Source: Anaerovoracaceae bacterium | Lineage (GTDB): Bacteria > Bacillota > Clostridia > Peptostreptococcales > Anaerovoracaceae | Reading direction: 5' to 3' | Assembly: GCA_036638575.1 (NCBI GenBank) | Contig: JAVWKI010000003.1 | Span: forward strand, 1-31,428 | DNA: 31,428 bases | In this document: positions 3,267-19,612 of the stretch, in pieces | How the letters are laid out: each line of letters starts with the position of its first letter | Position numbering within the stretch: position 1 is the first letter of the stretch | The notes under the pieces: generated by a model | The model's input: only the letters and a program-made list of their open reading frames with translations | Told to the model about the DNA's origin: nothing | Database searches by the model: none | Position numbers and translations under genes: made by a program

Positions 3267-3959
3267 CTATTTTAGCGGAAAGAATAACACGATGCATATT
3301 CCTGCTGCAGCCTCTATGTAGAGGGCTAGCGGATATTGCACTATCTTCTTTTGTTTCTTTTTTAGCAGCCCCATCGCTGCCCCAATTCCTGCCAAAAACA
3401 CCCCAAAAATAAGAACAAAGCCGATTCCTTTTGGTCCGAGCATTAACCCTAACGCTCCGCAAAGCTTAGCACTTCCAAGGAGCAAGCCTTCTTTTTTTCG
3501 GATTAATTTCCCCGCCAAGCCCAGGAGGATCATCCCGCCAAATCCAATCAATGCACCCCATAGTAGCTGCAAATATTGTGAATGGAAGGGGATAAATCCA
3601 AAGGCAGTAATGGCCAAAAATAAAACCAGCTCCTGGGAAATTACCTTGTATTTTTTGGTGGCAATGGCCAGTTCTAAAAGCAACCACAGGGCAAAGGTTG
3701 CCCCTATGGCATACTGCCAGTTTTTCATTCCTAAATAGATGTCGATGACAATAAAAGACGCAACGAAGACATATTTCCAAGGATAGCTTTTAATCCGTTG
3801 ACTGTGGGGAGAAAGAACCGCCTCATCCGGTTCTTTCCCATAATCACAAAGCCACGTTGCAGGGATTCGATTGAATCCATAAACCGCTCCATTGCCTGCA
3901 ATCACGCCCACGCCTATGCTCGCTGCGACAATTATTATACTCCTTAACAGTTGATCCAT
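3267..3959 (-). CDS. Prepilin peptidase (A24/GXGD) homologue, both catalytic Asp apparently substituted
   Basis: Polytopic membrane protein with A24 layout, but ELAIATKKY where homologues have xIxD-x-K/R-Y and LLGSAKL where they have GxGDxKL. C-terminal YPLALYI resembles the PFxPFI-type motif. Start at 3959 (TAATG overlap with the malic enzyme stop). Confidence 0.72.
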   Translation of the reverse strand: MDQLLRSIIIVAASIGVGVIAGNGAVYGFNRIPATWLCDYGKEPDEAVLSPHSQRIKSYPWKYVFVASFIVIDIYLGMKNWQYAIGATFALWLLLELAIATKKYKVISQELVLFLAITAFGFIPFHSQYLQLLWGALIGFGGMILLGLAGKLIRKKEGLLLGSAKLCGALGLMLGPKGIGFVLIFGVFLAGIGAAMGLLKKKQKKIVQYPLALYIEAAAGICIVLFFPLK

Positions 3960-5101
3960 TATTCCTTCCATGCTCCTGCAACCGCATCGGCCACTACATC
4001 AGCAACGCCGGGAGTGAATGCACTTGGAATAATATTTTCTGCTGTTAAATCCTTATCTTCAATTACTTCTGCTAGGGCATAGGCCGCCGCAACTTTCATT
4101 TCTTCGGTGATTCTCTTTGCCCCTGCCCTTAGGGCACCCTTAAATAGTCCCGGGAAAATCAAAACATTGTTGATCTGATTAGGAAAATCCGATCGCCCTG
4201 TTGCCACAACTGCAGCCCCGGCTTCTCTGGCAAGATCCGGCATAATTTCCGGCTCTGGATTGGCCATGGCAAAAATCATGGAATCCTTATCCATCGCACC
4301 AATCATCTCCGCGCTTAGTGCCTTTGGTCCGGATACGCCCACAAACAGATCTCTATCCTTTACTGCCTCTGCCAAATCACAGCCATAGGTACAAGCAATG
4401 CCGTCCTTAGCTGCCAAAAGTTTTTCTGCAAGGGCCTGTGCCGGCTCTTTGCGCTTATCACAAACTGCAATATCACAAACGCCTAAGCTGAACAGCATCT
4501 TGGCGATGGCAGTTCCTGCCGCTCCCGCACCATTTAATACAAGCTTTAATTGATCAATTCGTTTTCCGGTTAATCTGCACGCATTGATTACCGCCGCGGA
4601 AACCACCACTGCCGTTCCATGCTGATCGTCATGAAATACCGGAATATCCACCTCCGCTTGCAATCGCTCTTCGATTTCAAAGCAACGCGGGGCGGAAATG
4701 TCTTCTAAGTTAATTCCCCCTAGCGTTGGTGCAATATTTTTGGCGATCATCACAATATCTTCCACCTCTTGGCTTTGGATACAAATGGGAATCGCATCTA
4801 CTCCTGCAAACTCTTTAAACAACAAGCATTTTCCATCCATAACCGGGATAGAGGCTGCCGCGCCAATATTTCCAAGACCCAGCACCGCAGAGCCATCACT
4901 GATTACCGCTACGGTATTGCTCTTGTTGGTGTATCGATATACCTCTTCCGGGTTTTCGTGTATTTTTCTGCACGGCTCTGCAACACCCGGAGTGTAAGCG
5001 GTAGAAAGATCTTCTTTTGTCTTTACTGCAACCTTGCTAATGGTTGCCATTTTCCCTTTATTTTGTTCGTGCATCTCTAAGGATGCTTTGTAATAATCCA
5101 T
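3959..5101 (-). CDS. NAD(P)-dependent malic enzyme (short, no PTA domain)
   Basis: AYTPGVA, SDGSAVLGLGNIG, GINLEDISAPRCF, FHDDQHGTA, GAGAAG, FAMANP, TGRSDFPNQINNVLIFPG. Confidence 0.94.
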   Translation of the reverse strand: MDYYKASLEMHEQNKGKMATISKVAVKTKEDLSTAYTPGVAEPCRKIHENPEEVYRYTNKSNTVAVISDGSAVLGLGNIGAAASIPVMDGKCLLFKEFAGVDAIPICIQSQEVEDIVMIAKNIAPTLGGINLEDISAPRCFEIEERLQAEVDIPVFHDDQHGTAVVVSAAVINACRLTGKRIDQLKLVLNGAGAAGTAIAKMLFSLGVCDIAVCDKRKEPAQALAEKLLAAKDGIACTYGCDLAEAVKDRDLFVGVSGPKALSAEMIGAMDKDSMIFAMANPEPEIMPDLAREAGAAVVATGRSDFPNQINNVLIFPGLFKGALRAGAKRITEEMKVAAAYALAEVIEDKDLTAENIIPSAFTPGVADVVADAVAGAWKE

Positions 5102-5110
5102 TGTTTTCTC

Positions 5111-6748
5111 CTATTTCTGCACCTTGAAGCTGCTCTTTAGGTCCACAATCCGGTTAAATACTTTTTCTGTTTCTGTCGTTAACTTACTGTCTGCCACATA
5201 ATATCCATGTCTGAAAAACTGGAATTTTTCTCCCGGTTTTGCAGCCTGAATGGATGGCTCTGCCATAGCCTTGTATTCTACCAGTGAATCCGGATTCATT
5301 TCTCCTTCAAGCATTAGGTAGCCATAATCTCTAATCGTAATTTCTTCTGCGGTTTTGGCATCAATCCAGTGAATTGTGCCCTTAACCTTTCTTCCTTCAA
5401 ATCCGTTTCCTGAACGGGTTTGCGGATCGTAGGTACAATGCAGTTCCTTGATGGTTCCATCTTCATTTTTGATCACTTGGTCACAGGTAATGAAGTACGC
5501 CCCTTTGAATCGAACCTCGTTTCCTGGGAAGAGTCTGAAATATTTCTTTATCGGCTCTTCCATGAAGTCTGCTCCATCTACATAAAGTTCCTTGCTAAAC
5601 GGAACCATTCTGTTGCCCATTTCCGGAACATTTCTGTTGTTTTCCATCTCCATTTCTTCGGTTTGATCTTCCGGGTAATTGGTAATCACAACCTTAATTG
5701 GATCAAAAACAACATTTCTGCTCTCTACCTTGTCCTGTAAGTCTTCTCTGACGCAGTGCTCTAAAAGAGAAACCTCTACCACACTGTTGGCTTTGGCCAC
5801 GCCAATTCGCTCACAAAAATCTCTGATGGCTTCTGGCGTATACCCTCTTCTTCTGAGCCCTGCAATGGTTGGCATTCTCGGATCATCCCAACCTTCAACC
5901 TTTCCCTCGTCTACTAGTGCCTTTAAATGTCTTTTGCTCATCACCGTATTGGTAATATTTAGTCTTGCAAATTCGATCTGCTGCGGCTGTGGATTCCACC
6001 AGCCCAGCTCATTTAAGGTCCAGTCGTATAGTGGTCGATGATCTTCAAACTCTAACGTACAAATTGAATGGGTTATGCCCTCGATGGCATCTTCAATGGG
6101 ATGAGCGAAATCATACATTGGATAGATACACCACTGGTTTCCCGTATTGTGATGCTGTACATGAGCAATTCTGTAAATTACAGGATCTCTCATGTTGATA
6201 TTTGCGCTAGCCATATCTATTTTTGCACGCAAAACTTTTTCTCCGTCTGCGTATTTTCCTTCTTTCATCTCTTCGAAAAGTCTTAAGTTTTCTTCTACAC
6301 TTCGTTCTCGATAAGGACTTTCCTTCCCCGGCTCGGTCAATGTTCCTCTATAGCTTCGAATTTCTTCTGCATTGAGATCACAAACAAAGGCCTTACCCTT
6401 TTGAATCAAGGTCACTGCCGCCTCATACATCTTTGGGAAATAGTCCGAAGCCCAAAGCTGTTTATCCCACTGGAAACCAAGCCATGTGATATCTTCTTCA
6501 ATGGAGTCAACATATTCAATGTCTTCCTTCACCGGGTTGGTATCGTCATATCGTAGGTTGCACATTCCGTTATACTTCTGTGCCGTTGTAAAGTTTAAAC
6601 AAATTGACTTTGCATGACCAATATGCAAATATCCATTTGGTTCCGGCGGAAATCTGGTATAAACCTTATCTCCGTATTTCCCCTCTTCAAGGTCCTTATC
6701 AATAATATTGCGTATAAAATTTGATGATTTATTTTCCATCTCTGACAT
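5111..6748 (-). CDS. glnS: Glutamine--tRNA ligase
   Basis: [19 protein letters not shown] (HIGH), [15 protein letters not shown] (MSK-type), [35 protein letters not shown] 7 nt upstream. Confidence 0.97.
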
Positions 6749-6845
6749 AGCGTGACTCCTTCATAAAAACTATTAATTTGCCTAGGTATTATACCATATT
6801 GGTCAGAATTATTCTACCTCTGTCCCCAATAAAAAGGATAGTCTA

Positions 6846-6866
6846 GGGCCATTTCTCAATCGGCCC
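6846..6866 (-). terminator. Possible weak terminator after radical SAM gene
   Basis: Short GC stem GGGCC...GGCCC, followed several nt later on the minus strand by CCTTTTT. Confidence 0.3.
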
Positions 6867-6882
6867 GCCCTTCCCGGTTCGT

Positions 6883-7971
6883 TTAAATAAATTGCTTCAT
6901 CAGCTGCTCTGAAAGTTCATCAATATTTTCTGCGGTAATTTGGTTTGCTTCAATCAGCTCCCTTACCTTCCCCGCAAATATAGGATTCTCCAAATCGGCC
7001 CGGCTATGCAAATAACCGATTCTTCGCCCCACGCGGAAAACAAGTTGTTCCTCCTCCGGCAGAGCCAGGAACCAGTCTAAGGCACCCAAAATCTTTTCCT
7101 TTTCTTCCGGAAGCTTTCCTGAGGCCTCGGGGATCAAATTCAAAATATGATCGTTGCTAACGACTCTACTATGGATTCCCTCTAGTAATGAAATCATTCG
7201 GCGAAGCTCCCTTACCATGTCCAAATCCTTGGTTCTGGTAAATCGTCCATTGGCATAATCCTCTGCCAATGGAACCCCATCAATGACCACAAAGGTTCTA
7301 ATTCGAATATAGTCCGGATCAATTTGATTTAAGGCATCTGCTGTTTCTTCAGCATTTTTTTCGCTGTATTCCTTGCCGCCAAGCCCAGGCATATAGTACT
7401 CCGACAAGGTAATCCCCGCAGCTTTGATCTTTCTTCCCGCTTCAATATGAATTGCCTTAGTTGCACCTTTTTTGACGCCTTCCAAAACCGCATCGCAGCC
7501 GCTTTCCATTCCAATATGTACCCTGTTCAGGCCTGCTGCAAACAAGGTGTTTAACTCCTCTTCCGTCTTTCTTGCAACGGTATGCGACCGAGCATAGGAG
7601 GTAACCCGCTCTACGCTAGGAAATTCCTCTTTGACCAAACGTATAATCTCTGCCAAATCTTCTGACGGTGCAATCAACGTATTGGCGTCTTGCAAAAACA
7701 CCGACTTCATTCCCGCCAACTTCCATTGATGCGCCATCTGTGCCGCACTACTTCCGTCAAACTCTCCTGTGTCCGCATAGTGTTTTACCCGTCGAATTTC
7801 TGCTTTTATTTCTTCTTTGTCCCGCAACGAAAATTTCTTCCCCTTGTATAATCCGCAGAATTTACACTGATTCCAAGGGCAGTTTCTGGTCACACGAAGA
7901 AGCAGGCTCTCCGCCTCACTTGGTGGGCGAATTGGTCCTAGTTCAAGATTTTCAAGCATCCTATTTTCCAT
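6883..7971 (-). CDS. Radical SAM protein of unknown function (IRPPSEA-type family)
   Basis: GPIRPPSEAESLLLRVTRNCPWNQCKFC (CX4CX2C), FLQDAN, VHIGMESG, YYMPGLGG, PDYIRIRT, NDHILN. Confidence 0.88.
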   Translation of the reverse strand: MENRMLENLELGPIRPPSEAESLLLRVTRNCPWNQCKFCGLYKGKKFSLRDKEEIKAEIRRVKHYADTGEFDGSSAAQMAHQWKLAGMKSVFLQDANTLIAPSEDLAEIIRLVKEEFPSVERVTSYARSHTVARKTEEELNTLFAAGLNRVHIGMESGCDAVLEGVKKGATKAIHIEAGRKIKAAGITLSEYYMPGLGGKEYSEKNAEETADALNQIDPDYIRIRTFVVIDGVPLAEDYANGRFTRTKDLDMVRELRRMISLLEGIHSRVVSNDHILNLIPEASGKLPEEKEKILGALDWFLALPEEEQLVFRVGRRIGYLHSRADLENPIFAGKVRELIEANQITAENIDELSEQLMKQFI

Positions 7972-8020
7972 TGTTCATTCCCCTTTTTCTTTTTCTTAAC
8001 CTTATCACTTCTCTTGCCCT

Positions 8021-8049
8021 AGTGTACCACAAACTTTCTGCTACGTCAG
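8021..8049 (-). promoter_or_regulatory. Candidate sigmaA promoter of radical SAM gene
   Basis: Minus strand CTGACG-17 nt-TACACT with extended -10 TG. Confidence 0.5.
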
Positions 8050-8072
8050 TACCTTGCCAGGGGTTCAATGGA

Positions 8073-9380
8073 CTATTTCCAGGTACGTTTACTTCCGGTT
8101 AACTCCTGAGCATAGCCCCATAATGCAGTGGGGGACATGACGCACTGATAAAACAGAATAAACAAAATAAACCCACCGATATTTCGCCGAACTTTCAATT
8201 CTAACTGATCAAAAACTTGAATTTTTTGTAATCGCATTAAGATAATAAAGGTTGCTAATGTCATAGGAAGAACGAAAAAAAACATAATTCCAACAATAAG
8301 ATAGTTTCCAAATAGAGCAAGAATCACTCCCGGTATAAAGAAAAAAGTATAAGCAAAGTCAATGTAAATAATCGCAATATCTAACAGCGTTAACACTTTG
8401 TAGTACAGATTTGGCTGCTGCCAAGGTTTCACTGCTCTCAGGCCTTCAATCATCCCTCTTGCCCAGCGAGAGCGTTGTCTCACCAAGTGAACAAATTTTT
8501 CCGGTACCTCGGTAAAGGCCACCGCCAAGGGTTCATAATATACCTTCCAGTTCACCTTCAAAAAATTCCAGGTAAGGACAATATCTTCTCCAATACAATC
8601 CTGCCATCCACCGAAGGATCGTACTAGCTCCGTGTTGTAAATACTAAATGCCCCTTGCGCCACCAAGGTTCCTTGGTACATTCCCTGCATTTTTTTAATT
8701 GCCGCCATGCTGATAAAGTAGTCCCACTCTTGCATTTTGGTCCAAAGATTAGACCGGCTATTTTTTGCCATAATTGCACCGGCCACCGCCCCTACATCCT
8801 CATAGGCATCGATTCGTGCAACTAAGTAACGCAAAGCCTTCTGGTGAAGCAAGGTATCTGCATCAATGGTCACAACATACTCTGTTTCTACCTTTTCCAA
8901 AGCTTGGTTCAAGGCAAAATGCTTCCCCTGCTCAGCTACAAAGCAATAGTTTATGGGCATCTTCAAAAAATCCTTGCTTGCACGCTCTACTTCTGCCTTT
9001 GTGCCATCGGTAGAATTATTGTCTGCAACCCAAACCGTTACTGCACCCTGATAATCCTGTTGATGTAAATACTTTAAGGTGTTATAAATGTTTTCCTCTT
9101 CATTGTAGGCGGCAATTAACACCGTAATCGGCTTCAATGGATTGGTATTGATATTGTATTTTTGCTTATTTAGCAAAGAGCTAATCACCAACAATAAGTT
9201 AATGAAGCCCGGGACCAGTCCTACTCCCCCAATGATCAGAACTGCCAACACCTCTCCTACAACTGCCGAAAGATCATGAAACCAGGGAATTCCAATGAAT
9301 AGACAAATTGTCATATACAAACAAGCTCCCCCCAGAGAAATGAAAAATTTGTGCTTAACCGGCACATACCACTTTGACAT
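8073..9380 (-). CDS. Processive glycosyltransferase family 2 (IcaA/PgaC-like)
   Basis: IAAYNEE, DNNSTD, GKHFALN, TIDADT (DxD), IGED and QRSRW (QxxRW). N- and C-terminal TM helices. Confidence 0.9.
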   Translation of the reverse strand: MSKWYVPVKHKFFISLGGACLYMTICLFIGIPWFHDLSAVVGEVLAVLIIGGVGLVPGFINLLLVISSLLNKQKYNINTNPLKPITVLIAAYNEEENIYNTLKYLHQQDYQGAVTVWVADNNSTDGTKAEVERASKDFLKMPINYCFVAEQGKHFALNQALEKVETEYVVTIDADTLLHQKALRYLVARIDAYEDVGAVAGAIMAKNSRSNLWTKMQEWDYFISMAAIKKMQGMYQGTLVAQGAFSIYNTELVRSFGGWQDCIGEDIVLTWNFLKVNWKVYYEPLAVAFTEVPEKFVHLVRQRSRWARGMIEGLRAVKPWQQPNLYYKVLTLLDIAIIYIDFAYTFFFIPGVILALFGNYLIVGIMFFFVLPMTLATFIILMRLQKIQVFDQLELKVRRNIGGFILFILFYQCVMSPTALWGYAQELTGSKRTWK

Positions 9381-13043: not shown

Positions 13044-14441
13044 CTAAGCCGGGAATAATTGTAGTCCCACAGTTAAGGCGATTGCGCCGATAATCCAAAG
13101 GATCAACACTAACGGTAGTACATATTTCAAAAACTTTGTCCACGGAATTTTAGCCATAGTCAATGATGCCATTAACACCCCATTGGTTGGTGTAATAAAG
13201 CTAGTTATTCCCGTTCCAAACTGGAAGGCGGTAACAATATTTTGTCTGGATACTCCAACCAAATCTCCTAGCGGTGCCATAATCGGAATCGTTAGTGCCG
13301 CGTGACCGGATGAAGATGGCACAAAGAAGGAGATAATATTCTGCACAACCAGCATGATGTTTGCAAACACAGCTTTAGGAAGACCACCAAGCATATTTGC
13401 CGCACCATTTAATATGGTATCGATAATTTTTCCGTCTTGGGCAATAATAATAATCGCTCTTGCCAATCCAATAACCAAGGCTGCATAAATTAAATCTTTG
13501 GATCCATCGATAAAGGAATCTGCAATTTCTGCTTGATTTAATCTACCAACAATACCGCCAAACACGCCAATCATAACAAAGATCATGGAAATTTCTTTTG
13601 TGTACCACCCTTGTGCCAATACACCCCAAACCATAACTGCCATACCGATGCCAAAAACAGCCAGCACCGCGCCATCCTTCTTGGTAAATGGCTTTATTTC
13701 TGTGCTTGCGCCCAATAATGTCTCTCGATTCTCCTGATCCAAGTGATAAACCAAGGATTTTTCCGGATTCTTTTTTACCTTTTTTGCATAGAAAAGAACA
13801 AAGGTAATGGAAACCGTCATCATGATCACCCAGATTACGCCTCTATAAACAATTGCTGATCCCGGTGCAAGTCCTGCAAGGGACTGTGCCAGGCCCACAG
13901 AAAACGGGTTAACGGTCGAGGCCGCTGTTCCTGCTGCCGCGCCAATGTATACAATGGAAAGCCCGGTGAGGGAGTCATATCCCATAGCCATCATCAGAGG
14001 GATAAAAATCATATAAAAGGGCAAGGTTTCTTCGCACATCCCAAAGGTTGTCCCCCCTAGACCGAACAGAATCATACACAAGGGAATAATAAACAGCTCT
14101 TTTTTCCCGAATATTTTTGCAGCTCTTCCAATGCCGGCTTCTATCGCTCCGGTTCGATTAATTACGCCAAAGGCGCCGCCTACAATCAATACAAATCCAA
14201 TTGTTTCTCCCGCATTGATGATGCCCTTAATTGGAGCGGTGAAAAAATCGTCTACCCCTTGAGGATTGGATGCCACCTCATGATAGGAGCCTGCAACGAC
14301 AATGGTTTTTCCGTCATCGGTTTCTTTTGTGTCAAATTGCCCACTGGGAACCAACCAAGTTAGTATGGTCATAAATAGAATAATTGCAAATATAATGGTG
14401 TAGGTGTGGGGAATACTTAATTTCTTTTTTAACTTACTCAT
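13044..14441 (-). CDS. YfcC family (DcuC/ArcD-related) secondary transporter
   Basis: IPHTYTII, LTWLVPSGQFD, GMCEETLPFY, STVNPFSVGLAQSLA, FFVPSSSGHAALTIPIMAPLGD, AFQFGTG, ITPT. About 11-12 TM segments. Confidence 0.92.
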   Translation of the reverse strand: MSKLKKKLSIPHTYTIIFAIILFMTILTWLVPSGQFDTKETDDGKTIVVAGSYHEVASNPQGVDDFFTAPIKGIINAGETIGFVLIVGGAFGVINRTGAIEAGIGRAAKIFGKKELFIIPLCMILFGLGGTTFGMCEETLPFYMIFIPLMMAMGYDSLTGLSIVYIGAAAGTAASTVNPFSVGLAQSLAGLAPGSAIVYRGVIWVIMMTVSITFVLFYAKKVKKNPEKSLVYHLDQENRETLLGASTEIKPFTKKDGAVLAVFGIGMAVMVWGVLAQGWYTKEISMIFVMIGVFGGIVGRLNQAEIADSFIDGSKDLIYAALVIGLARAIIIIAQDGKIIDTILNGAANMLGGLPKAVFANIMLVVQNIISFFVPSSSGHAALTIPIMAPLGDLVGVSRQNIVTAFQFGTGITSFITPTNGVLMASLTMAKIPWTKFLKYVLPLVLILWIIGAIALTVGLQLFPA

Positions 14442-14455
14442 TTCCTTCTCCTCTA

Positions 14456-15661
14456 TTAATACAGTTCTTTCTGCTTTTTTAATTCTGCCTTTGCTTGTGC
14501 CACAAGTACCGGTCGGTCAAAGAGATCCAGGGCAATTCCTGCAAAGCTTTTGACCATTTGATGTAGGCGCTTATATGCTTCCGATGAATTGGCGTAAGCC
14601 AAAGCACTTTCATCATGTACAATAAACGACAAGCCTTCATCCAGTCCGATTTCCGTATACAAGGTGGGCACAAGATTGCTGACATTTCCAATGTCTGTGG
14701 ACCCCGGCATAGGATCCCAGGTTCTATATACCTGTTCAAACCCTTGCCTTTGCATATTTTCTTCAGCAAGCTTCCCCAGTACAGGGATGGTCACAATGTC
14801 ATCTAAGGATGCATCCGGCATGGAAACCTCTAATTTGGCTCCGGTCATTAGCTCTGCACCTTTCGCACAGTTAATCACTTTTTGTGTAATTTGATCAACA
14901 TAGGCTCGTTTTTTCCCTCTTACATAGAATTTGCAAGAAGCATTTTCCGGAATAATGTTTACCGCTTGTCCCCCATTGGTGACAATTCCATGAATGCGGA
15001 CATCCTGCATAATCTGTTGCCGCAAGGCATTGACCCCCGCAAAGGTCAATTGTACCGCATCTAAGGCGTTAATCCCTTCATAAGGAAATTGTGCCGCATG
15101 AGCAGGCTTCCCCTTGAAGGAGAACTCCAAAGAATCCATTGCAAGGGCCGGTGCCATAATATCTGTTTTTTCTTCAAGATGTGCTTGCATAACAATGTCT
15201 AAATCATCAAAGCAACCTTCCTCCAGCATAAGGGCCTTCCCATTGTAGGTTTCTTCTGCCGGTGTTCCGATTAGAACCACCTTGCCATTGATAGATTCTA
15301 TCATTCTACCAAGAACAATTGCCGTTCCTGCTGTTACTGCCGATATCCAATTATGTCCACAGGCATGAGCGGCTTCTCCCTTAGGTCCATATCCAGGTAG
15401 GGCATCGTATTCTGCCAAAAATCCGATTACCGGTCCATCTCCATTTCCTCGTTCTGCTCTAAATGCCGTTTTTTCTTTGCCGTAAGGATAGGTGACCGAA
15501 AACTTTTCGCCACGCATTAGTTCTGTTAAGTAATTTGCACTTTCTACTTCTTCTCCACCCAATTCCGGATGGTTAAAAATAAAATCACAAATCTCCTCAA
15601 TCTTTTCGCTTAATTTTTCTTCTAGCATTTCTGCTAAACTCTTTTTTTCTTCTGTTTTCAT
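14456..15661 (-). CDS. M20 family amidohydrolase (PM20D2/HmrA/AbgB-like), catalytic set intact
   Basis: HPELGGEE, AEYDALPG, HACGHN, GTPAEE, QAH, GINALDA, STDIGNVS and a C-terminal His (IVH). Confidence 0.92.
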   Translation of the reverse strand: MKTEEKKSLAEMLEEKLSEKIEEICDFIFNHPELGGEEVESANYLTELMRGEKFSVTYPYGKEKTAFRAERGNGDGPVIGFLAEYDALPGYGPKGEAAHACGHNWISAVTAGTAIVLGRMIESINGKVVLIGTPAEETYNGKALMLEEGCFDDLDIVMQAHLEEKTDIMAPALAMDSLEFSFKGKPAHAAQFPYEGINALDAVQLTFAGVNALRQQIMQDVRIHGIVTNGGQAVNIIPENASCKFYVRGKKRAYVDQITQKVINCAKGAELMTGAKLEVSMPDASLDDIVTIPVLGKLAEENMQRQGFEQVYRTWDPMPGSTDIGNVSNLVPTLYTEIGLDEGLSFIVHDESALAYANSSEAYKRLHQMVKSFAGIALDLFDRPVLVAQAKAELKKQKELY

Positions 15662-15691
15662 TTAAGCCTCCTTTTGTTTGCCCCTATATAG

Positions 15692-15708
15692 AGCAAATCT
15701 CGTGCCAA
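15692..15708 (-). promoter_or_regulatory. sigma54 (-24/-12) promoter for the M20-yfcC operon
   Basis: Minus strand TTGGCAC-GAGAT-TTGCT, matching the consensus TGGCAC-N5-TTGCW, about 30 nt upstream of the start. A cognate activator gene lies about 1.5 kb away. Confidence 0.88.
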
Positions 15709-15789
15709 CTTAGCAGAATATTTGTCCATTTCCCCTTAAACCCTTGTAGTTTCAACGTACATTTTCTTTTTCTCCTTGGGAATAAAAAG

Positions 15790-15818
15790 AAAACGACTTA
15801 GATTCGCTAAGTCGTTTT
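15790..15818 (-). terminator. Intrinsic terminator-like palindrome after upstream M20 paralogue
   Basis: Perfect 12-bp inverted repeat AAAACGACTTAG-attcg-CTAAGTCGTTTT, followed on the minus strand by CTTTTT. Confidence 0.7.
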
Positions 15819-15857
15819 TGCTTTATTCCTAAGTCATTTTTGCTTTCAGTCATTTTT
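15807..15857. repeat. Tandem direct repeats, candidate enhancer (UAS) for the sigma54 activator
   Basis: CTAAGTCGTTTTTGCTTT (15807-15824) and CTAAGTCATTTTTGCTTT (15829-15846) share 17 of 18 nt with a 22-bp period. A partial third copy AGTCATTTTT lies at 15848-15857. The repeats are 100-150 bp upstream of the -24 element. Confidence 0.7.
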
Positions 15858-15864
15858 AACTTGT

Positions 15865-17079
15865 CTATTTAATGCTTTCTCCAACAACCTTCCCTTGTGC
15901 TTTTTCCACTTCCAACAAAAGTTTTTTGTCTAGGAATAGCTCCATGGCAATTTTGGCCATTATTTTAGAAATTTGATGAAGCTTCCTGGTGGAAAACTTT
16001 GAGTTAACATATTGCAGTGCGCGTTCATCATGTACGCGAAATTCTCCATCTGCCCCAATATCAAATTCCATATATAAGGTCGGACAAATATGGCTTACAT
16101 TTCCAATATCCGAAGAGGTGAATTCCCCCTCTTGCATGTATTCCGGAGACGGTTCAATTCCTTCTTCCCCCATATATTCTAGGGCCAAACCGGTTAACAC
16201 CGGGTTGTTGATCATATTGTCATAGGAATTCTCAAAATAAGACATGGTCATTTCTGCCCCGGCCATTAATGCTGCACCTTCCGCACAACGAATAATCTTT
16301 GGTTTAATGCTTTCTAAGTAGGTTCTATCCTTTGCCCGAATATAGTACCGACATGCTGCGGTTCCCGGAATAACACTAGGTGCATCGCCTCCTTCAGAGA
16401 CAATTCCGTGAAGCTTCACGTCAGAACGAAGATATTGCCGTAGCGCATTGATCCCCATAAAGGTAAATTGTACCGCATCCAAAGCATTAATCCCCTCTTC
16501 AGGATAGGCTGAAGCATGGCTAGAACGCCCTTTAAAGGAAAACTCAATGGCATCCATGGCCAGAAACTTGGATTCCACTGAAGTATATTTTTCAAGATGG
16601 GATTGAATCACCACATCCACATCATCAAAGGCATGGGCCTTGATCATCTCTGCCTTGCAGCCTACGTTTTCCATTGCCGGTGTACCAATCACGCGAATCG
16701 TCCCCTGAAACTGTTCCTTTAGCTCAAGCAAAATCATTGCCGTACCCATGGAAACCGCAGAAATCCAATTGTGCCCACAAGCATGGGCAGGAAAGCCTCC
16801 CGGCCCTAACCCCGGCAAGGCGTCATACTCAGCAATAAAACCAATCACCGGACCTTCTCCATTTTTAAATTCTGCCAAGAAGGATGTGTCTAAGTCACAA
16901 TATCCAGAAGTAACCGTAAACCCTTTTTTCTTGGCCAGCTCCATTAAAAATGCTGAGGAAACATACTCCTCCGTTCCCAGTTCCGGATTTTTGAACAGGA
17001 AGTCACTAATATATTCCATCTCTCCATAGTTCTTTTTTGCTGCTATCTCTATTTCCCCACATAATTTTTCATCAATCAT
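15865..17079 (-). CDS. M20 family amidohydrolase paralogue with GTPAME in place of GTPAEE
   Basis: NPELGTEE, AEYDALPG, HACGHN, GTPAME, QSH, GINALDAVQ, SSDIGNVS, RVH. Collinear with 14456..15661. Start at 17079 or 17082 (MMIDEK) after AAGGAG. Confidence 0.9.
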   Translation of the reverse strand: MIDEKLCGEIEIAAKKNYGEMEYISDFLFKNPELGTEEYVSSAFLMELAKKKGFTVTSGYCDLDTSFLAEFKNGEGPVIGFIAEYDALPGLGPGGFPAHACGHNWISAVSMGTAMILLELKEQFQGTIRVIGTPAMENVGCKAEMIKAHAFDDVDVVIQSHLEKYTSVESKFLAMDAIEFSFKGRSSHASAYPEEGINALDAVQFTFMGINALRQYLRSDVKLHGIVSEGGDAPSVIPGTAACRYYIRAKDRTYLESIKPKIIRCAEGAALMAGAEMTMSYFENSYDNMINNPVLTGLALEYMGEEGIEPSPEYMQEGEFTSSDIGNVSHICPTLYMEFDIGADGEFRVHDERALQYVNSKFSTRKLHQISKIMAKIAMELFLDKKLLLEVEKAQGKVVGESIK

Positions 17080-17116
17080 CATGGACTCCTTTACTTAACC
17101 ACCTTTTTCTCTATCT

Positions 17117-17125
17117 ATCTTAGCA
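17117..17125 (-). promoter_or_regulatory. Candidate extended -10 promoter for the variant M20 gene
   Basis: Minus strand TG-C-TAAGAT about 35 nt upstream of the start, with no clear -35. Confidence 0.4.
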
Positions 17126-17153
17126 CAAAAACCCTCCCTTGACGATGGAGATA

Positions 17154-17162
17154 TGGTATACT
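17154..17162 (+). promoter_or_regulatory. Extended -10 promoter, possibly giving a leaderless activator mRNA
   Basis: TG-G-TATACT ending 6 nt before ATG 17169. No SD at a usable spacing. Confidence 0.55.
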
Positions 17163-17168
17163 TTACCT

Positions 17169-18578
17169 ATGGAAAAACAATTTAATTTAGATAAAGAACA
17201 ACTGAACACAATCTTAACTAAGCTTACCGATGGGCTTCTGATCAGCGATAGCTCCGGTAATATTTTGTTTTGTAACGAAGCCATCGCTTCTTACTATAAT
17301 CTTACACGAACGAAGCTGCTTACCATGAAGAACTATGATCTTCTAGAGCAAGGCCTCATCGATCATTCCTTCACTGCACTGGTACTGAGCACAAAGAAGC
17401 CCATTACCTATGAGCAGCAGTGCAAGTCCGGAGAAAAATTGTTAAACAAAACCATACCCATCTTCGATCAGGCCGGCAAGGTTGTTTATGTTGTAGAGCA
17501 ATGCTATTCTGTTGCCGCACTTTTGTTTAATTCGGGCATCGGCCCAGAGGAAGAAGCTGCCGCCGAAACCTTACAAGCAGCGGGCAGTGCTGTAGAAAAA
17601 GCACCACCGCTAGCAGAGTTTAAAAGTCCCGCTATGGAAAAGCTTTATAGCTTAGCCGATCATATGGCACCAAAGAACATCAACATTTTGATTTTAGGAG
17701 ATTCCGGTACAGGCAAAACGCAATTGGCCAAACGGATTCACAATAACAGTGCCCGAAAATATGGCCCCTTTATTACCATCAACTGCTCCACCATCCCAGA
17801 AAATCTACTGGAGTCGGAGCTTTTTGGCTATACCAAGGGTGCCTTCAGTGGAGCAAATTCTTCCGGCAAGCAAGGCTTGGTGGAACTAGCCAACAACGGA
17901 ACCTTGTTCCTTGATGAAATCGGAGAGCTTCCCTTAGGTATTCAATCTAAGCTTCTCCAATTGGTTCAAGAAAAAGTATTTCTTCCCGTAGGCGGCGTTC
18001 ACCCTAAGCAAGTAGATACTCGAATCATTGCAGCCACCAATCGGGATTTGGCTTCTCAAATTGCCGAAGGCGTTTTTCGTGAAGATCTCTACTATCGTTT
18101 GGCCGTGGTAACCATTACCATGCCCCCTTTGGCGGGAAGAAAAGAAGATATCCATCGGTTAATTAAACACTTTACCAACAGATTCAATATTAAACATGAT
18201 ATGGAGGTTTCCTTTTCAAGAGAAACCATTCGGCGCCTTTGTGACTATTCCTACCCGGGAAATATTCGCGAGCTGGAACACCTGATCGAATTTTTGATCC
18301 TCAATGCCAAGGAGGAATACGTCACCCCTTATATGCTTCCTGCCAACATTCTTCATGACGAAGCAGCCTTAGATCCACCAGAGAAAATGGCCGAGCCTCC
18401 TTCTCCTGAGGATTATCACCAGGTGTCAACCTTTGATTCCTTTATCGAGGCACAGGAACGAGGACTGATTCAGAGCCTATACCCCCAGTATGGGAACTCC
18501 TATAAATTGGCCGACCGGCTAGGTATTTCACAAAGCAAAGCAAGCCGCTTGATTCGAAAATATATTAAACAGGACTAA
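17169..18578 (+). CDS. sigma54-dependent transcriptional activator (PAS + AAA+ + TyrR-like HTH)
   Basis: N-terminal PAS-like region (DGLLISDSSGNILFCNEA), Walker A GDSGTGKT, ESELFGY, GAFSGA, Walker B LFLDEIGE, IIAATNRDL, FREDLYYRL, YPGNIREL, C-terminal YKLADRLGISQSKASRLIRKY. Confidence 0.95.
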   Translation: MEKQFNLDKEQLNTILTKLTDGLLISDSSGNILFCNEAIASYYNLTRTKLLTMKNYDLLEQGLIDHSFTALVLSTKKPITYEQQCKSGEKLLNKTIPIFDQAGKVVYVVEQCYSVAALLFNSGIGPEEEAAAETLQAAGSAVEKAPPLAEFKSPAMEKLYSLADHMAPKNINILILGDSGTGKTQLAKRIHNNSARKYGPFITINCSTIPENLLESELFGYTKGAFSGANSSGKQGLVELANNGTLFLDEIGELPLGIQSKLLQLVQEKVFLPVGGVHPKQVDTRIIAATNRDLASQIAEGVFREDLYYRLAVVTITMPPLAGRKEDIHRLIKHFTNRFNIKHDMEVSFSRETIRRLCDYSYPGNIRELEHLIEFLILNAKEEYVTPYMLPANILHDEAALDPPEKMAEPPSPEDYHQVSTFDSFIEAQERGLIQSLYPQYGNSYKLADRLGISQSKASRLIRKYIKQD

Positions 18579-18664: not shown

Positions 18665-19603
18665 TTAACCCTTACACTTAACAATGTGTTTTTCAATTAA
18701 TTTTACCGGCTTGTAGGAAAGCTTTGCCTTACGCAAATTAGGAATTCCCATGTCCTCTTCTCGATTAATGTATTTCACATTGGCTGCCATGTGCTTGCAA
18801 AACTCATTGTTAATGGCTTGATAAAGTCCTCTAAACTGCGTATTGGCTTTTTCCACATGCTCGGTCACCGTCTTTCGATCCAGATCTCCTCCAATGGCAA
18901 TGGCCTCTATCTTTCCGTCAATTAGAATCGCCCCGGCCTTGTAGCCTATGGTTTCAATATTACAAAACACGTCCTTCATGGCTTCCTCTTCCATTTTCAA
19001 CAATTCCATCTCATGGGCAGGAACGTCCTTCCGTGCGTTAAAGTCTGAAATAAATCGCATGGCATCCTCTGCCATTGCAGAGGTTAGTGGAACGTACTCA
19101 TAGTCATAGGTCTTGTGAAAATAGTTTAAATGGTTTTTCTTCCCATGATATTCTCTGCCCTTTAATTCGATCAAATCTTGTGTTCGATACACATAGTCGT
19201 AATTTGGCCGATCATCAATGTAAGAAAGCTGTCCCGGGCAGGCCTCCTTCAAGAAGTCCAACATATGCATCGGTACAAGTCTCATACTGAAGGGATAACC
19301 TTCCGCTTCAAAAATCTTCTTTGCTTCAAAGATGGTTTGGTGAAGCTTCTCCGGGTCATAGGTTCCGGTTTTGGTCAATGGAGGAAACATAAACGGCAAG
19401 ACAATGCCCTCTTCTAGTTCAAGGTGACTGATTCCTGCAATACACAGATAGTCTCCAATAATCTGCCAACTGAATTTATTAATATTTCTCCACATATACA
19501 GTGCCGAAAAGGATAAACCGGACGTCTTGTATTCAAATCCATTTAAGTATTCTTCCAAGATCTCCTTATTTTCTATGGTTATTTTCTCGCTAAACATGAA
19601 CAT
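18665..19603 (-). CDS. DUF2156 / phosphatidylglycerol lysyltransferase C-terminal-like domain protein (soluble)
   Basis: SFSALYMW, DRPNYDYVY, LKGREYHGKKNHLNYF, HVEKANTQFRGLYQAIN, YINREEDMGIPNLRKAKLSYKP. Confidence 0.88.
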   Translation of the reverse strand: MFMFSEKITIENKEILEEYLNGFEYKTSGLSFSALYMWRNINKFSWQIIGDYLCIAGISHLELEEGIVLPFMFPPLTKTGTYDPEKLHQTIFEAKKIFEAEGYPFSMRLVPMHMLDFLKEACPGQLSYIDDRPNYDYVYRTQDLIELKGREYHGKKNHLNYFHKTYDYEYVPLTSAMAEDAMRFISDFNARKDVPAHEMELLKMEEEAMKDVFCNIETIGYKAGAILIDGKIEAIAIGGDLDRKTVTEHVEKANTQFRGLYQAINNEFCKHMAANVKYINREEDMGIPNLRKAKLSYKPVKLIEKHIVKCKG

Positions 19604-19612
19604 CAAATTTAC

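Follow-up and report, generated by a model that had tools for sequence, protein, structure and literature searches.

A predicted M20 pseudo-peptidase as the proposed ligand sensor of an adjacent PAS-type sigma54 activator in Anaerovoracaceae

The 31,428-nucleotide stretch of an Anaerovoracaceae bacterium genome analysed here (the window: positions 1 to 31,428 of contig JAVWKI010000003.1, assembly GCA_036638575.1) encodes two tandem paralogues of the M20D amidohydrolase family, next to a divergently transcribed sigma54 enhancer-binding protein with a PAS domain (the activator; 17169-18578, plus strand). One paralogue (14456-15661, minus strand) is intact, with the motifs HACGHN and GTPAEE. The other, referred to as the variant (15865-17082, minus strand), has HACGHN and GTPAME. 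On balance, and with modest confidence, we infer that the variant, a pseudo-peptidase, serves the adjacent activator as a non-catalytic partner, recruited to sense a ligand without hydrolysing it; its inactivity, its ligand and its binding to the activator are all part of this inference.

In M20D enzymes, the first glutamate of the Glu-Glu pair is the general base and the second one binds metal, and replacing the general-base glutamate in characterised M20 enzymes abolishes activity. In the variant, this position is Met137, encoded by the ATG codon at 16672-16674 (minus strand), where the intact copy has the codons GAA GAA for its Glu-Glu pair (15251-15256). A homologue search over 5.8 billion proteins finds that the 33 nearest homologues of the variant, at 52-67% identity, all lack the general base (Met in 31, Asn in two) and all have Asn at position 139, and that all more distant homologues carry Glu-Glu. 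When the 44 members of the variant clade are considered, position 137 is Met in 42 and Asn in two. Glutamate is found there in 126/126 other close family members and in 150/150 other sequences of a representative set; among the 150 best cluster representatives out of 1.84 billion proteins, the cluster of the variant is the only one without the general-base Glu. In the maximum-likelihood tree, all variants group in a single clade (support 100/100), found in Anaerovoracaceae-type genomes; the named carriers are Hominibacterium faecale, Anaerovorax, Aminipila, Candidatus Allocopromorpha and unclassified Bacillota. The GTPAME motif noticed in the sequence-only reading is therefore real, and a sequencing error or private mutation is ruled out by the Met or Asn in all 33 nearest homologues and by the monophyly of the clade. 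Judged from these homologues, the loss of the general base is an old, fixed and selected character.

Linkage of the variant to the activator

Fourteen loci from genomes and metagenomes, the window included, share a standard layout in which the activator gene is divergent from the variant gene. The latter is followed by a gap of 150-300 bp, with GACTT/AAGTC repeats and a hairpin with a T run, and then by a sigma54 promoter; 3' of this promoter are an intact M20D gene and the gene of a YfcC-family transporter, where the contig extends far enough. A conserved gene order around the variant, with the activator, the intact M20 and YfcC as neighbours, was among the checks proposed in the sequence-only reading; it is seen here, and the sigma54 promoter is conserved as well.

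The activator has one PAS domain, followed by the AAA+ and helix-turn-helix domains (Sigma54_activat, E 3e-65, with a GAFSGA loop and the Walker A motif GDSGTGKT; HTH_50), in agreement with the PAS-only activator read from the sequence. Its reading frame is open from a TTG codon at 17139, and alignment with orthologues indicates that the ATG at 17169 is most likely the start codon. The genome encodes sigma54 itself (rpoN is present, with the Sigma54_DBD gene on contig C21), and 14 activators of the sigma54 enhancer-binding class are found in its 1.87 Mb.

An activator gene is present in every variant locus examined, divergently adjacent in 14 of them and convergent, about 3 kb downstream, in two (L033 and L118). 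The intact enzyme is not as constant. At three loci (L033, L118 and L120), which form a subclade nested among the other variants, the variant and the activator are kept together with the repeats and the sigma54 promoter, and the intact M20 is absent from the locus. The cargo is there instead a HAAAP-type (Trp_Tyr_perm/Aa_trans) permease together with a class-III enzyme dependent on pyridoxal phosphate (PLP), which is most like glutamate-1-semialdehyde aminomutase or GntE (L033, 6462-9076; L118, 7443-10061; L120, 4823-7445). In the L033 genome, the completeness of which is not given, no M20D of this family was found besides the variant. Intact genes of the partner clade also occur with YfcC at loci having neither the variant nor the activator (L047, L056 and L058). 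When a sample of 401 genomes of the order was searched, two of them (G000 and G389) proved to have an orthologous PAS domain by profile (>160 bits; next best 99), and the variant orthologue (54% identity) is in the same two, adjacent to it and with neither found alone. The other matches of the variant in these 401 genomes are at most 51% identical, and those checked, in Clostridioides difficile-type loci, are Glu-Glu proteins. The module is patchy, with no close orthologues found in 40 related genomes, and when the PAS region by itself was used in a word-based protein search, the activator was the only match. Because the cargo is exchanged while the variant, the activator and the promoter stay constant, the conserved unit consists of the variant, the activator, the enhancer and the promoter; on the evidence of gene order, the variant is linked to the activator and not to the intact enzyme.

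This bears on the alternative that the variant belongs to a hetero-oligomeric hydrolase as a non-catalytic subunit, pairing with the intact M20D through the retained dimerisation domain, in the manner of AbgA with AbgB, and tuning its stability or specificity. M20 enzymes are normally dimers or tetramers, the structure of HmrA (Protein Data Bank (PDB) entry 3RAM) has four chains, and the tandem paralogues both keep the M20_dimer domain. The branching order within the variant clade also mirrors that of the intact neighbours, which indicates that the pair was inherited together, and a role as subunit would be compatible with binding to the activator as well. Against it, the two genes appear to be transcribed separately, from promoters of different types and with a terminator between them, the variant occurs without the intact partner at the three loci and in the L033 genome described above, and partner-clade enzymes occur without the variant. 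The Abg system of Escherichia coli, to which the sequence-only reading had turned, is ruled out as a precedent for a dead subunit, since AbgA and AbgB both keep Glu-Glu. A conserved unit with exchangeable cargo argues against an obligatory structural role in a hydrolase and for a regulatory role. The subunit alternative is consequently considered improbable. The earlier choice between a structural or regulatory subunit and a sensor of the activator is in this way narrowed: the sensor is favoured, because three loci keep the variant, the activator and the promoter without the intact M20, and the structural subunit is disfavoured.

The transcription signals of the window are arranged on the two sides of the variant gene. 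The sigma54 -24/-12 element TGGCAC-N5-TTGC (15707-15693, minus strand) is 32 nucleotides ahead of the AGGAGG ribosome site and the ATG of the intact gene, and an equivalent element, at the matching position after the variant gene, is present in 15/15 other variant loci with a readable region; no sigma54 promoter is seen in front of the variant gene itself in any locus read. The placement of the intact copy and of YfcC under a sigma54 promoter, as proposed before, is thus borne out. For the variant gene, the divergent region between it and the activator (17083-17168) holds a candidate promoter with an extended -10 element, TGC-TAAGAT (17125-17117, minus strand), 35 nucleotides before the variant ATG; similar TG-extended -10 boxes are found 30-40 nucleotides before the variant start in most of the 12 other activator-variant intergenic regions read. 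Behind the variant gene is a hairpin terminator with 12-bp arms and a T run (15818-15790, minus strand; -14.9 kcal/mol, z -5.8 vs shuffled sequences), so that a candidate sigmaA promoter and a terminator of its own, already suggested for the variant, are both found. The GACTT/AAGTC-type repeats (15790-15857, minus strand), the candidate enhancer (upstream activating sequence) of the activator, overlap this hairpin. In almost every locus, such half-sites precede the sigma54 promoter by 70-150 bp, also where the cargo is different; repeats in the gap after the variant gene are found in the window and in L021, L023, L025-L029, L032, L033, L117, L118 and L120, with the full palindrome GACTTAAGTC in L026 and L029, often within or beside the terminator hairpin. 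The hairpin and T run recur across the loci, with diverging stem sequences in which the embedded repeats stay conserved, and this makes it plausible that the same segment serves as terminator and as candidate enhancer.

In the intergenic region between activator and variant, pairs of the type AGTCA-N5-6-TGACT are observed in L025, L030, L032 and L119; these repeats beside the activator gene hint at autoregulation. A second sigma54 promoter precedes the transporter gene in the two Anaerovorax loci (L030, 7717; L031, 7729).

Together, these elements could form a portable cassette, in which a catalytically retired peptidase would act as ligand receptor, with its activator, enhancer and promoter, and which could be placed before different catabolic operons, of a hydrolase with an importer or of a permease with a PLP enzyme. 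This wider proposal is made tentatively, with confidence falling a little short of even.

Fold, metal centre and selection of the variant

The two M20D proteins of the window are full length, collinear and 48% identical, and both match Peptidase_M20, M20_dimer and TIGR01891, in agreement with the tandem pair described earlier. The variant scores 212 bits against TIGR01891 (cut-off 154). The stop codon of its gene is at 15865-15867, the end that had been assigned to it; at the 5' end, there are two possible Met start codons, at 17082 and at 17079, of which only the latter had been recognised. The AlphaFold model of the variant is confident, with a predicted local distance difference test score (pLDDT) of 88, and its best matches in the PDB are HmrA (template modelling (TM) score 0.86-0.89) and PM20D2 (TM 0.85). 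Of the metal ligands, Cys102, His104, His162 and His351 are invariant among 33 clade members and Glu138 nearly so (Val in 1/33), so that the retention of all five ligand residues, first noticed in this one protein, holds across the clade.

Other conserved residues have changed as well. Across 126 Glu-Glu relatives, 134 positions show a conservation of at least 90%; the variant clade keeps 82 of these and changes 21, among them Arg69, Tyr92, Arg223, Asn236, Thr274 and Asn303. The lid residue Asn236, in the motif GGxxxN(I/V)P, is found in 100% of the 126 active relatives and is Ser or Thr in 41/44 variants, and Arg223, the lid arginine of the RxHG motif, is found in 95% of active relatives and is Lys or Asn in all variants. 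Arg69, which the intact copy has in common with PM20D2, is Leu, Met or Ile in the variants. A catalytic role of the lid Asn and Arg residues is known from other M20 enzymes. The new residues (Phe92, Phe206, Tyr303 and Asn139) are themselves fixed. Because the base and the lid residues are replaced while the fold and the metal ligands are kept, the variant has the signature of a pseudoenzyme, and the description of it as a conserved pseudoenzyme with a preserved metal centre and predicted loss of catalysis is supported.

It is also possible that the variant is still an enzyme, either as a slow hydrolase or in a metal-dependent reaction that needs no glutamate, for example by making or destroying the true inducer at a low constitutive level. 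This would be in agreement with the strong purifying selection on all metal ligands. It would also fit two loci (L046 and L054) in which the activator is followed by an adjacent Glu-Glu M20D gene outside the sigma54 promoter, and then by the promoter, YfcC and a second M20D gene; these copies indicate that an enzymatic role at the activator-adjacent position existed or still exists. The tree is a five-way polytomy that does not separate the intact partners from these activator-adjacent Glu-Glu copies as the sister group of the variants, and a single clade of the variants and the activator-adjacent copies is not rejected by the approximately unbiased (AU) test (p 0.59). Against this possibility, the general base is missing in 44/44 clade members, Asn236 has become Ser or Thr and Arg223 has become Lys or Asn, and the alternation of Met and Asn at position 137 suggests that the absence of the base was selected, rather than a new catalytic group. 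It is therefore judged unlikely, to the same degree as the subunit role.

The gene order of L046 and L054 is also found in L052, in which no sigma54 promoter is detected with the pattern used. The activators of the loci with a Glu-Glu first copy have an extra N-terminal PAS-like segment. In L046, from an Aminipila metagenome-assembled genome, the activator beside the Glu-Glu M20D (3300-4990, minus strand) shifts frame between its N-terminal part and the AAA+ domain; the gene is a pseudogene with a frameshift, or else the shift reflects an error of the assembly. A plausible path, tentative in its order, would start with a duplication, after which the activator captured one of the copies and catalysis was lost in the Anaerovoracaceae lineage.

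A metal-reporting role of the variant, be it as a Zn/Mn/Co sensor or as a metallochaperone linked to the activator, is far less likely still. The Cys/His/Glu/His/His centre is its most strictly conserved feature, and the adjacent Met could conceivably alter the metal preference; but Asn replaces this Met in two clade members, so that it is not needed as a ligand, and the cargo operons are for nutrient uptake and catabolism, one type being PLP-dependent, and neither is a metal-homeostasis set.

Decay of a duplicate under relaxed selection can be dismissed: the variant has somewhat longer terminal branches than the intact partner, and the 21 changed positions mentioned above would fit, but the reading frame is open and full length in 44/44 members, 82/134 conserved positions are retained, new residues are fixed, the pLDDT is 88, and the ratio of nonsynonymous to synonymous substitution rates (dN/dS), taken from the one unsaturated pair (two Anaerovorax genomes), is 0.042 for the variant, below the 0.113 of the intact copy (activator, 0.126; transporter, 0.033). 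In saturated pairs, dN of the variant is close to the value of the intact copy or moderately higher, and lower than the value of the activator. A substitution private to this genome, with relaxed selection and lost synteny, is the outcome that would have spoken against the sequence-only reading; the opposite is found, a substitution that is fixed in one clade and under purifying selection.

Predicted complex with the PAS domain and a possible mechanism

A complex was modelled from the variant (33-row alignment) and residues 1-125 of the activator, its PAS region, counted from the Met at 17169 (12-row alignment). The pair scores 0.70 and the best of three controls 0.00, so that the modelling of an activator complex, put forward earlier as a check, has a positive outcome. 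The mark used for this score is reached by 58/80 solved complexes and by 2/110 mismatched pairs, and it is a rough guide only, as custom alignments were used here. Three runs agree in 100% of contacts, with pLDDT of at least 86 for the partner, and we know of no solved M20-PAS complex that the model could have remembered.

The variant surface predicted to touch the PAS domain covers residues 24-48 (codons 16939-17013, minus strand), in the helices 19-31 and 40-52, and is formed by Tyr24, Asp27, Phe28, Lys31, Asn32, Glu34, Tyr40, Val41, Ala44, Phe45 and Glu48. On the PAS side, the contacts run from Phe68 to Glu82, presumably the F-alpha helix and the start of G-beta. This region carries the best-conserved motif of the PAS domain, STKKxVTYEQ (activator residues 74-83, in the same numbering), with the conserved interface residues Lys77, Thr80 and Tyr81. 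Asp27, Phe28, Lys31, Asn32 and Glu34 are invariant or nearly so across the 44 variants. When the 14 intact partners are considered, positions 27, 31 and 32 vary, and the core position 41, which is hydrophobic in all variants, is Glu, Lys or Gln in 13/14. In the model, the predicted interface coincides with conserved patches on both proteins. A charge pairing may also exist between variant residue 44 and PAS residue 74: where the latter is Lys or Arg, the former is Glu in 4/6 loci, and where it is Ser, Asn or Cys, the former is mostly basic or small. As the loci are not independent, this pairing is suggestive only. The model supports, and stops short of showing, that the variant binds the PAS domain of the activator.

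With such a complex, a mechanism can be proposed for the variant as ligand sensor. The variant would have its own promoter of the sigma-A type, with the terminator separating its expression from that of the cargo operon, and its N-terminal helices (residues 24-48) would dock on the F-alpha/G-beta face of the PAS domain. A ligand would be held at the metal centre without being cleaved, and the ligand-driven closure of the two M20 domains would alter the contact between the variant and the PAS domain. The activator could then assemble at the GACTT/AAGTC repeats, which precede the sigma54 promoter of the cargo operon by about 70-150 bp, and open this promoter. As to the sign of this control, it may be guessed that the ligand-free variant restrains the activator and that the ligand releases it, because the well-studied proteins that partner such activators (NifL, PspA and HrpV) are, to our knowledge, all inhibitors.

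Several points weigh against this proposal. For the PAS-type activators of Clostridia, direct sensing of ligands is the general assumption (PMC6615313), and the PAS domain might sense a ligand unaided here as well. One in-silico model is the whole basis for the binding of the variant to the PAS domain, complex tests of this kind are often positive for near relatives of a true partner as well, and a hydrophobic residue at position 41 is also found in relatives without an activator, and hence is not specific. The model does not explain a route from ligand binding in the M20 cleft to the N-terminal helices. Several pocket residues have changed, so that the ligand of the variant may differ from the substrate of the intact enzyme. 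The insulation by a terminator is not universal, since the Anaerovorax loci L030 and L031 have 46 nucleotides and no hairpin between the variant stop codon and the sigma54 promoter, and the dN/dS value of the variant comes from a single unsaturated pair.

If the proposal is true, bacteria have a further and new route for switching on nutrient-use genes, by means of a dead-peptidase sensor, and some of the PAS activators of Clostridia regarded as one-component systems would be two-protein sensors, in which the PAS domain reads a protein and not a small molecule. Signal perception by the PAS-type sigma54 activators of amino-acid-fermenting Clostridia is largely obscure, and a linked pseudo-peptidase is a testable alternative. 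The M20 metallopeptidase family would join the pseudoenzymes that have turned into regulators, and the variant would be a natural case of an enzyme converted into a substrate-trapping sensor by removal of the general base. The small size of the cassette, its readable promoter and enhancer and its cultured carriers (at least two isolates, Hominibacterium faecale SF3 and Anaerovorax sp. IOR16) make the idea directly testable; the cassette might also give a ligand-inducible switch.

Cargo, neighbouring loci and comparison with known systems

The cargo operon of the window starts with the intact M20D gene and ends with the gene of the YfcC/DcuC-family transporter (13044-14441, minus strand; Pfam DcuC, E 2e-115), whose orthologues in related loci are 76-82% identical and at the equivalent position. 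Its match to the NCBIfam YfcC family ('putative basic amino acid antiporter') is below the family cut-off, and a weak match to the AbgT family is also seen. Lysine riboswitches (Rfam RF00168, 100-126 bits) are found about 130-180 bp upstream of yfcC at six other loci (L034, L035, L036, L041, L044 and L063), in which yfcC-M20D pairs with 50-58% identity to those of the window occur in Clostridioides difficile, Metaclostridioides, Terrisporobacter, Paraclostridium and one Coprobacillaceae genome. For C. difficile, it has been reported that the pair CD3100-3099 is switched off by lysine via the riboswitch (PMC11477304). PM20D2, the nearest characterised eukaryotic relative, cleaves beta-alanyl-lysine and Xaa-Arg. 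The riboswitches, the name of the antiporter family and the specificity of PM20D2, when taken together, suggest a lysine-linked pathway of uptake and hydrolysis by YfcC and M20D, and the substrate is probably a lysine-yielding (basic) dipeptide or an N-acyl amino acid. In one metagenomic locus (L025), a Peptidase_S66 (LD-carboxypeptidase) gene is present between the intact M20D and the transporter (7884-8849), which suggests an L-D-bonded peptide or a cell-wall-derived substrate in that lineage.

The flanks of the window (a two-component system, thiolase, an LPG_synthase_C-like protein, isochorismatase and SurE) provide no pathway context and are not conserved between the loci. Directly 3' of the activator is the gene of a 313-residue protein having only the LPG_synthase_C domain, the C-terminal lysyl-transferase-like domain of phosphatidylglycerol lysyltransferase (18665-19606, minus strand); it too is not conserved in related loci. 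In a genome of the same genus as the window (G002, locus L014), a tandem pair of AbgB-like M20 genes, both with Glu-Glu, is found behind a TGGCAC-N5-TTGC promoter and divergent from a sigma54 activator other than the one described here, and tandem M20 pairs under putative sigma54 control are thus a recurring arrangement in this group. In another genome (G033, locus L015/L160), an unrelated AbgB-like M20 of 474 residues (6427-7851), which shares 40% identity with E. coli AbgB, has the motifs HACGKN and GCPGNE. The general base and one His of the metal ligands are thus both lost, and by these motifs the protein is a second M20D pseudoenzyme, independent of the variant; within 14 kb of it, neither a homologue of the activator nor a sigma54 promoter was found.

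As regards the protein itself, the variant shares the fold, the length, the HxCGHN motif and the metal ligands, five in number, with HmrA of Staphylococcus aureus (PDB entry 3RAM; phmmer E 1e-59) and with the human beta-alanyl-lysine/Xaa-Arg dipeptidase PM20D2 (PDB entries 7YH4 and 8ZEI; phmmer E 9e-42). Unlike these enzymes, it has Met in place of the base Glu, and the lid Asn, the lid Arg and Arg69 are replaced, so that catalysis is not expected.

As regards gene order, the abgR/abgA-abgB-abgT locus of E. coli is similar, with a regulator divergent from two M20D paralogues, which are followed by a transporter. The regulator of this p-aminobenzoyl-glutamate hydrolase system is, however, of the LysR type and not a sigma54 activator, and both subunits are Glu-Glu proteins. 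The three abg genes are on one strand without large gaps, with abgA and abgB overlapping by one base, and are generally regarded as one operon, whereas in the window the first paralogue is insulated and predicted to be non-catalytic. The C. difficile CD3100-3099 type operons have in common with the window a transporter and an intact M20D of the same families, kept as a pair. They differ in being under lysine riboswitch control, confirmed for the six loci, and by BLAST no second M20 or activator is found in them, whereas the window has sigma54, the activator and the variant. Control by sigma54 and the activator instead of a riboswitch suggests substrate-induced catabolism.

As regards the regulation, no report was found in the literature of an M20 pseudo-peptidase, or of an M20-family or peptidase-like partner of an enhancer-binding protein, and the Clostridiales sigma54 regulon paper has no mention of a peptidase, a hydrolase or YfcC. 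The pairs NifL-NifA, PspA-PspF and HrpV-HrpS are alike in that a separate protein sets the activity of an AAA+ activator, the complex being only predicted for the variant; here, too, the two partners are encoded together and co-inherited, as seen in the 401 genomes. Closest in logic is the Dha system of E. coli, in which the enzyme subunits DhaK and DhaL bind the sensing domain of DhaR. DhaK and DhaL have kept their function as enzyme subunits, and DhaR works with sigma70, whereas the variant would have given up catalysis and would act on a sigma54 activator.

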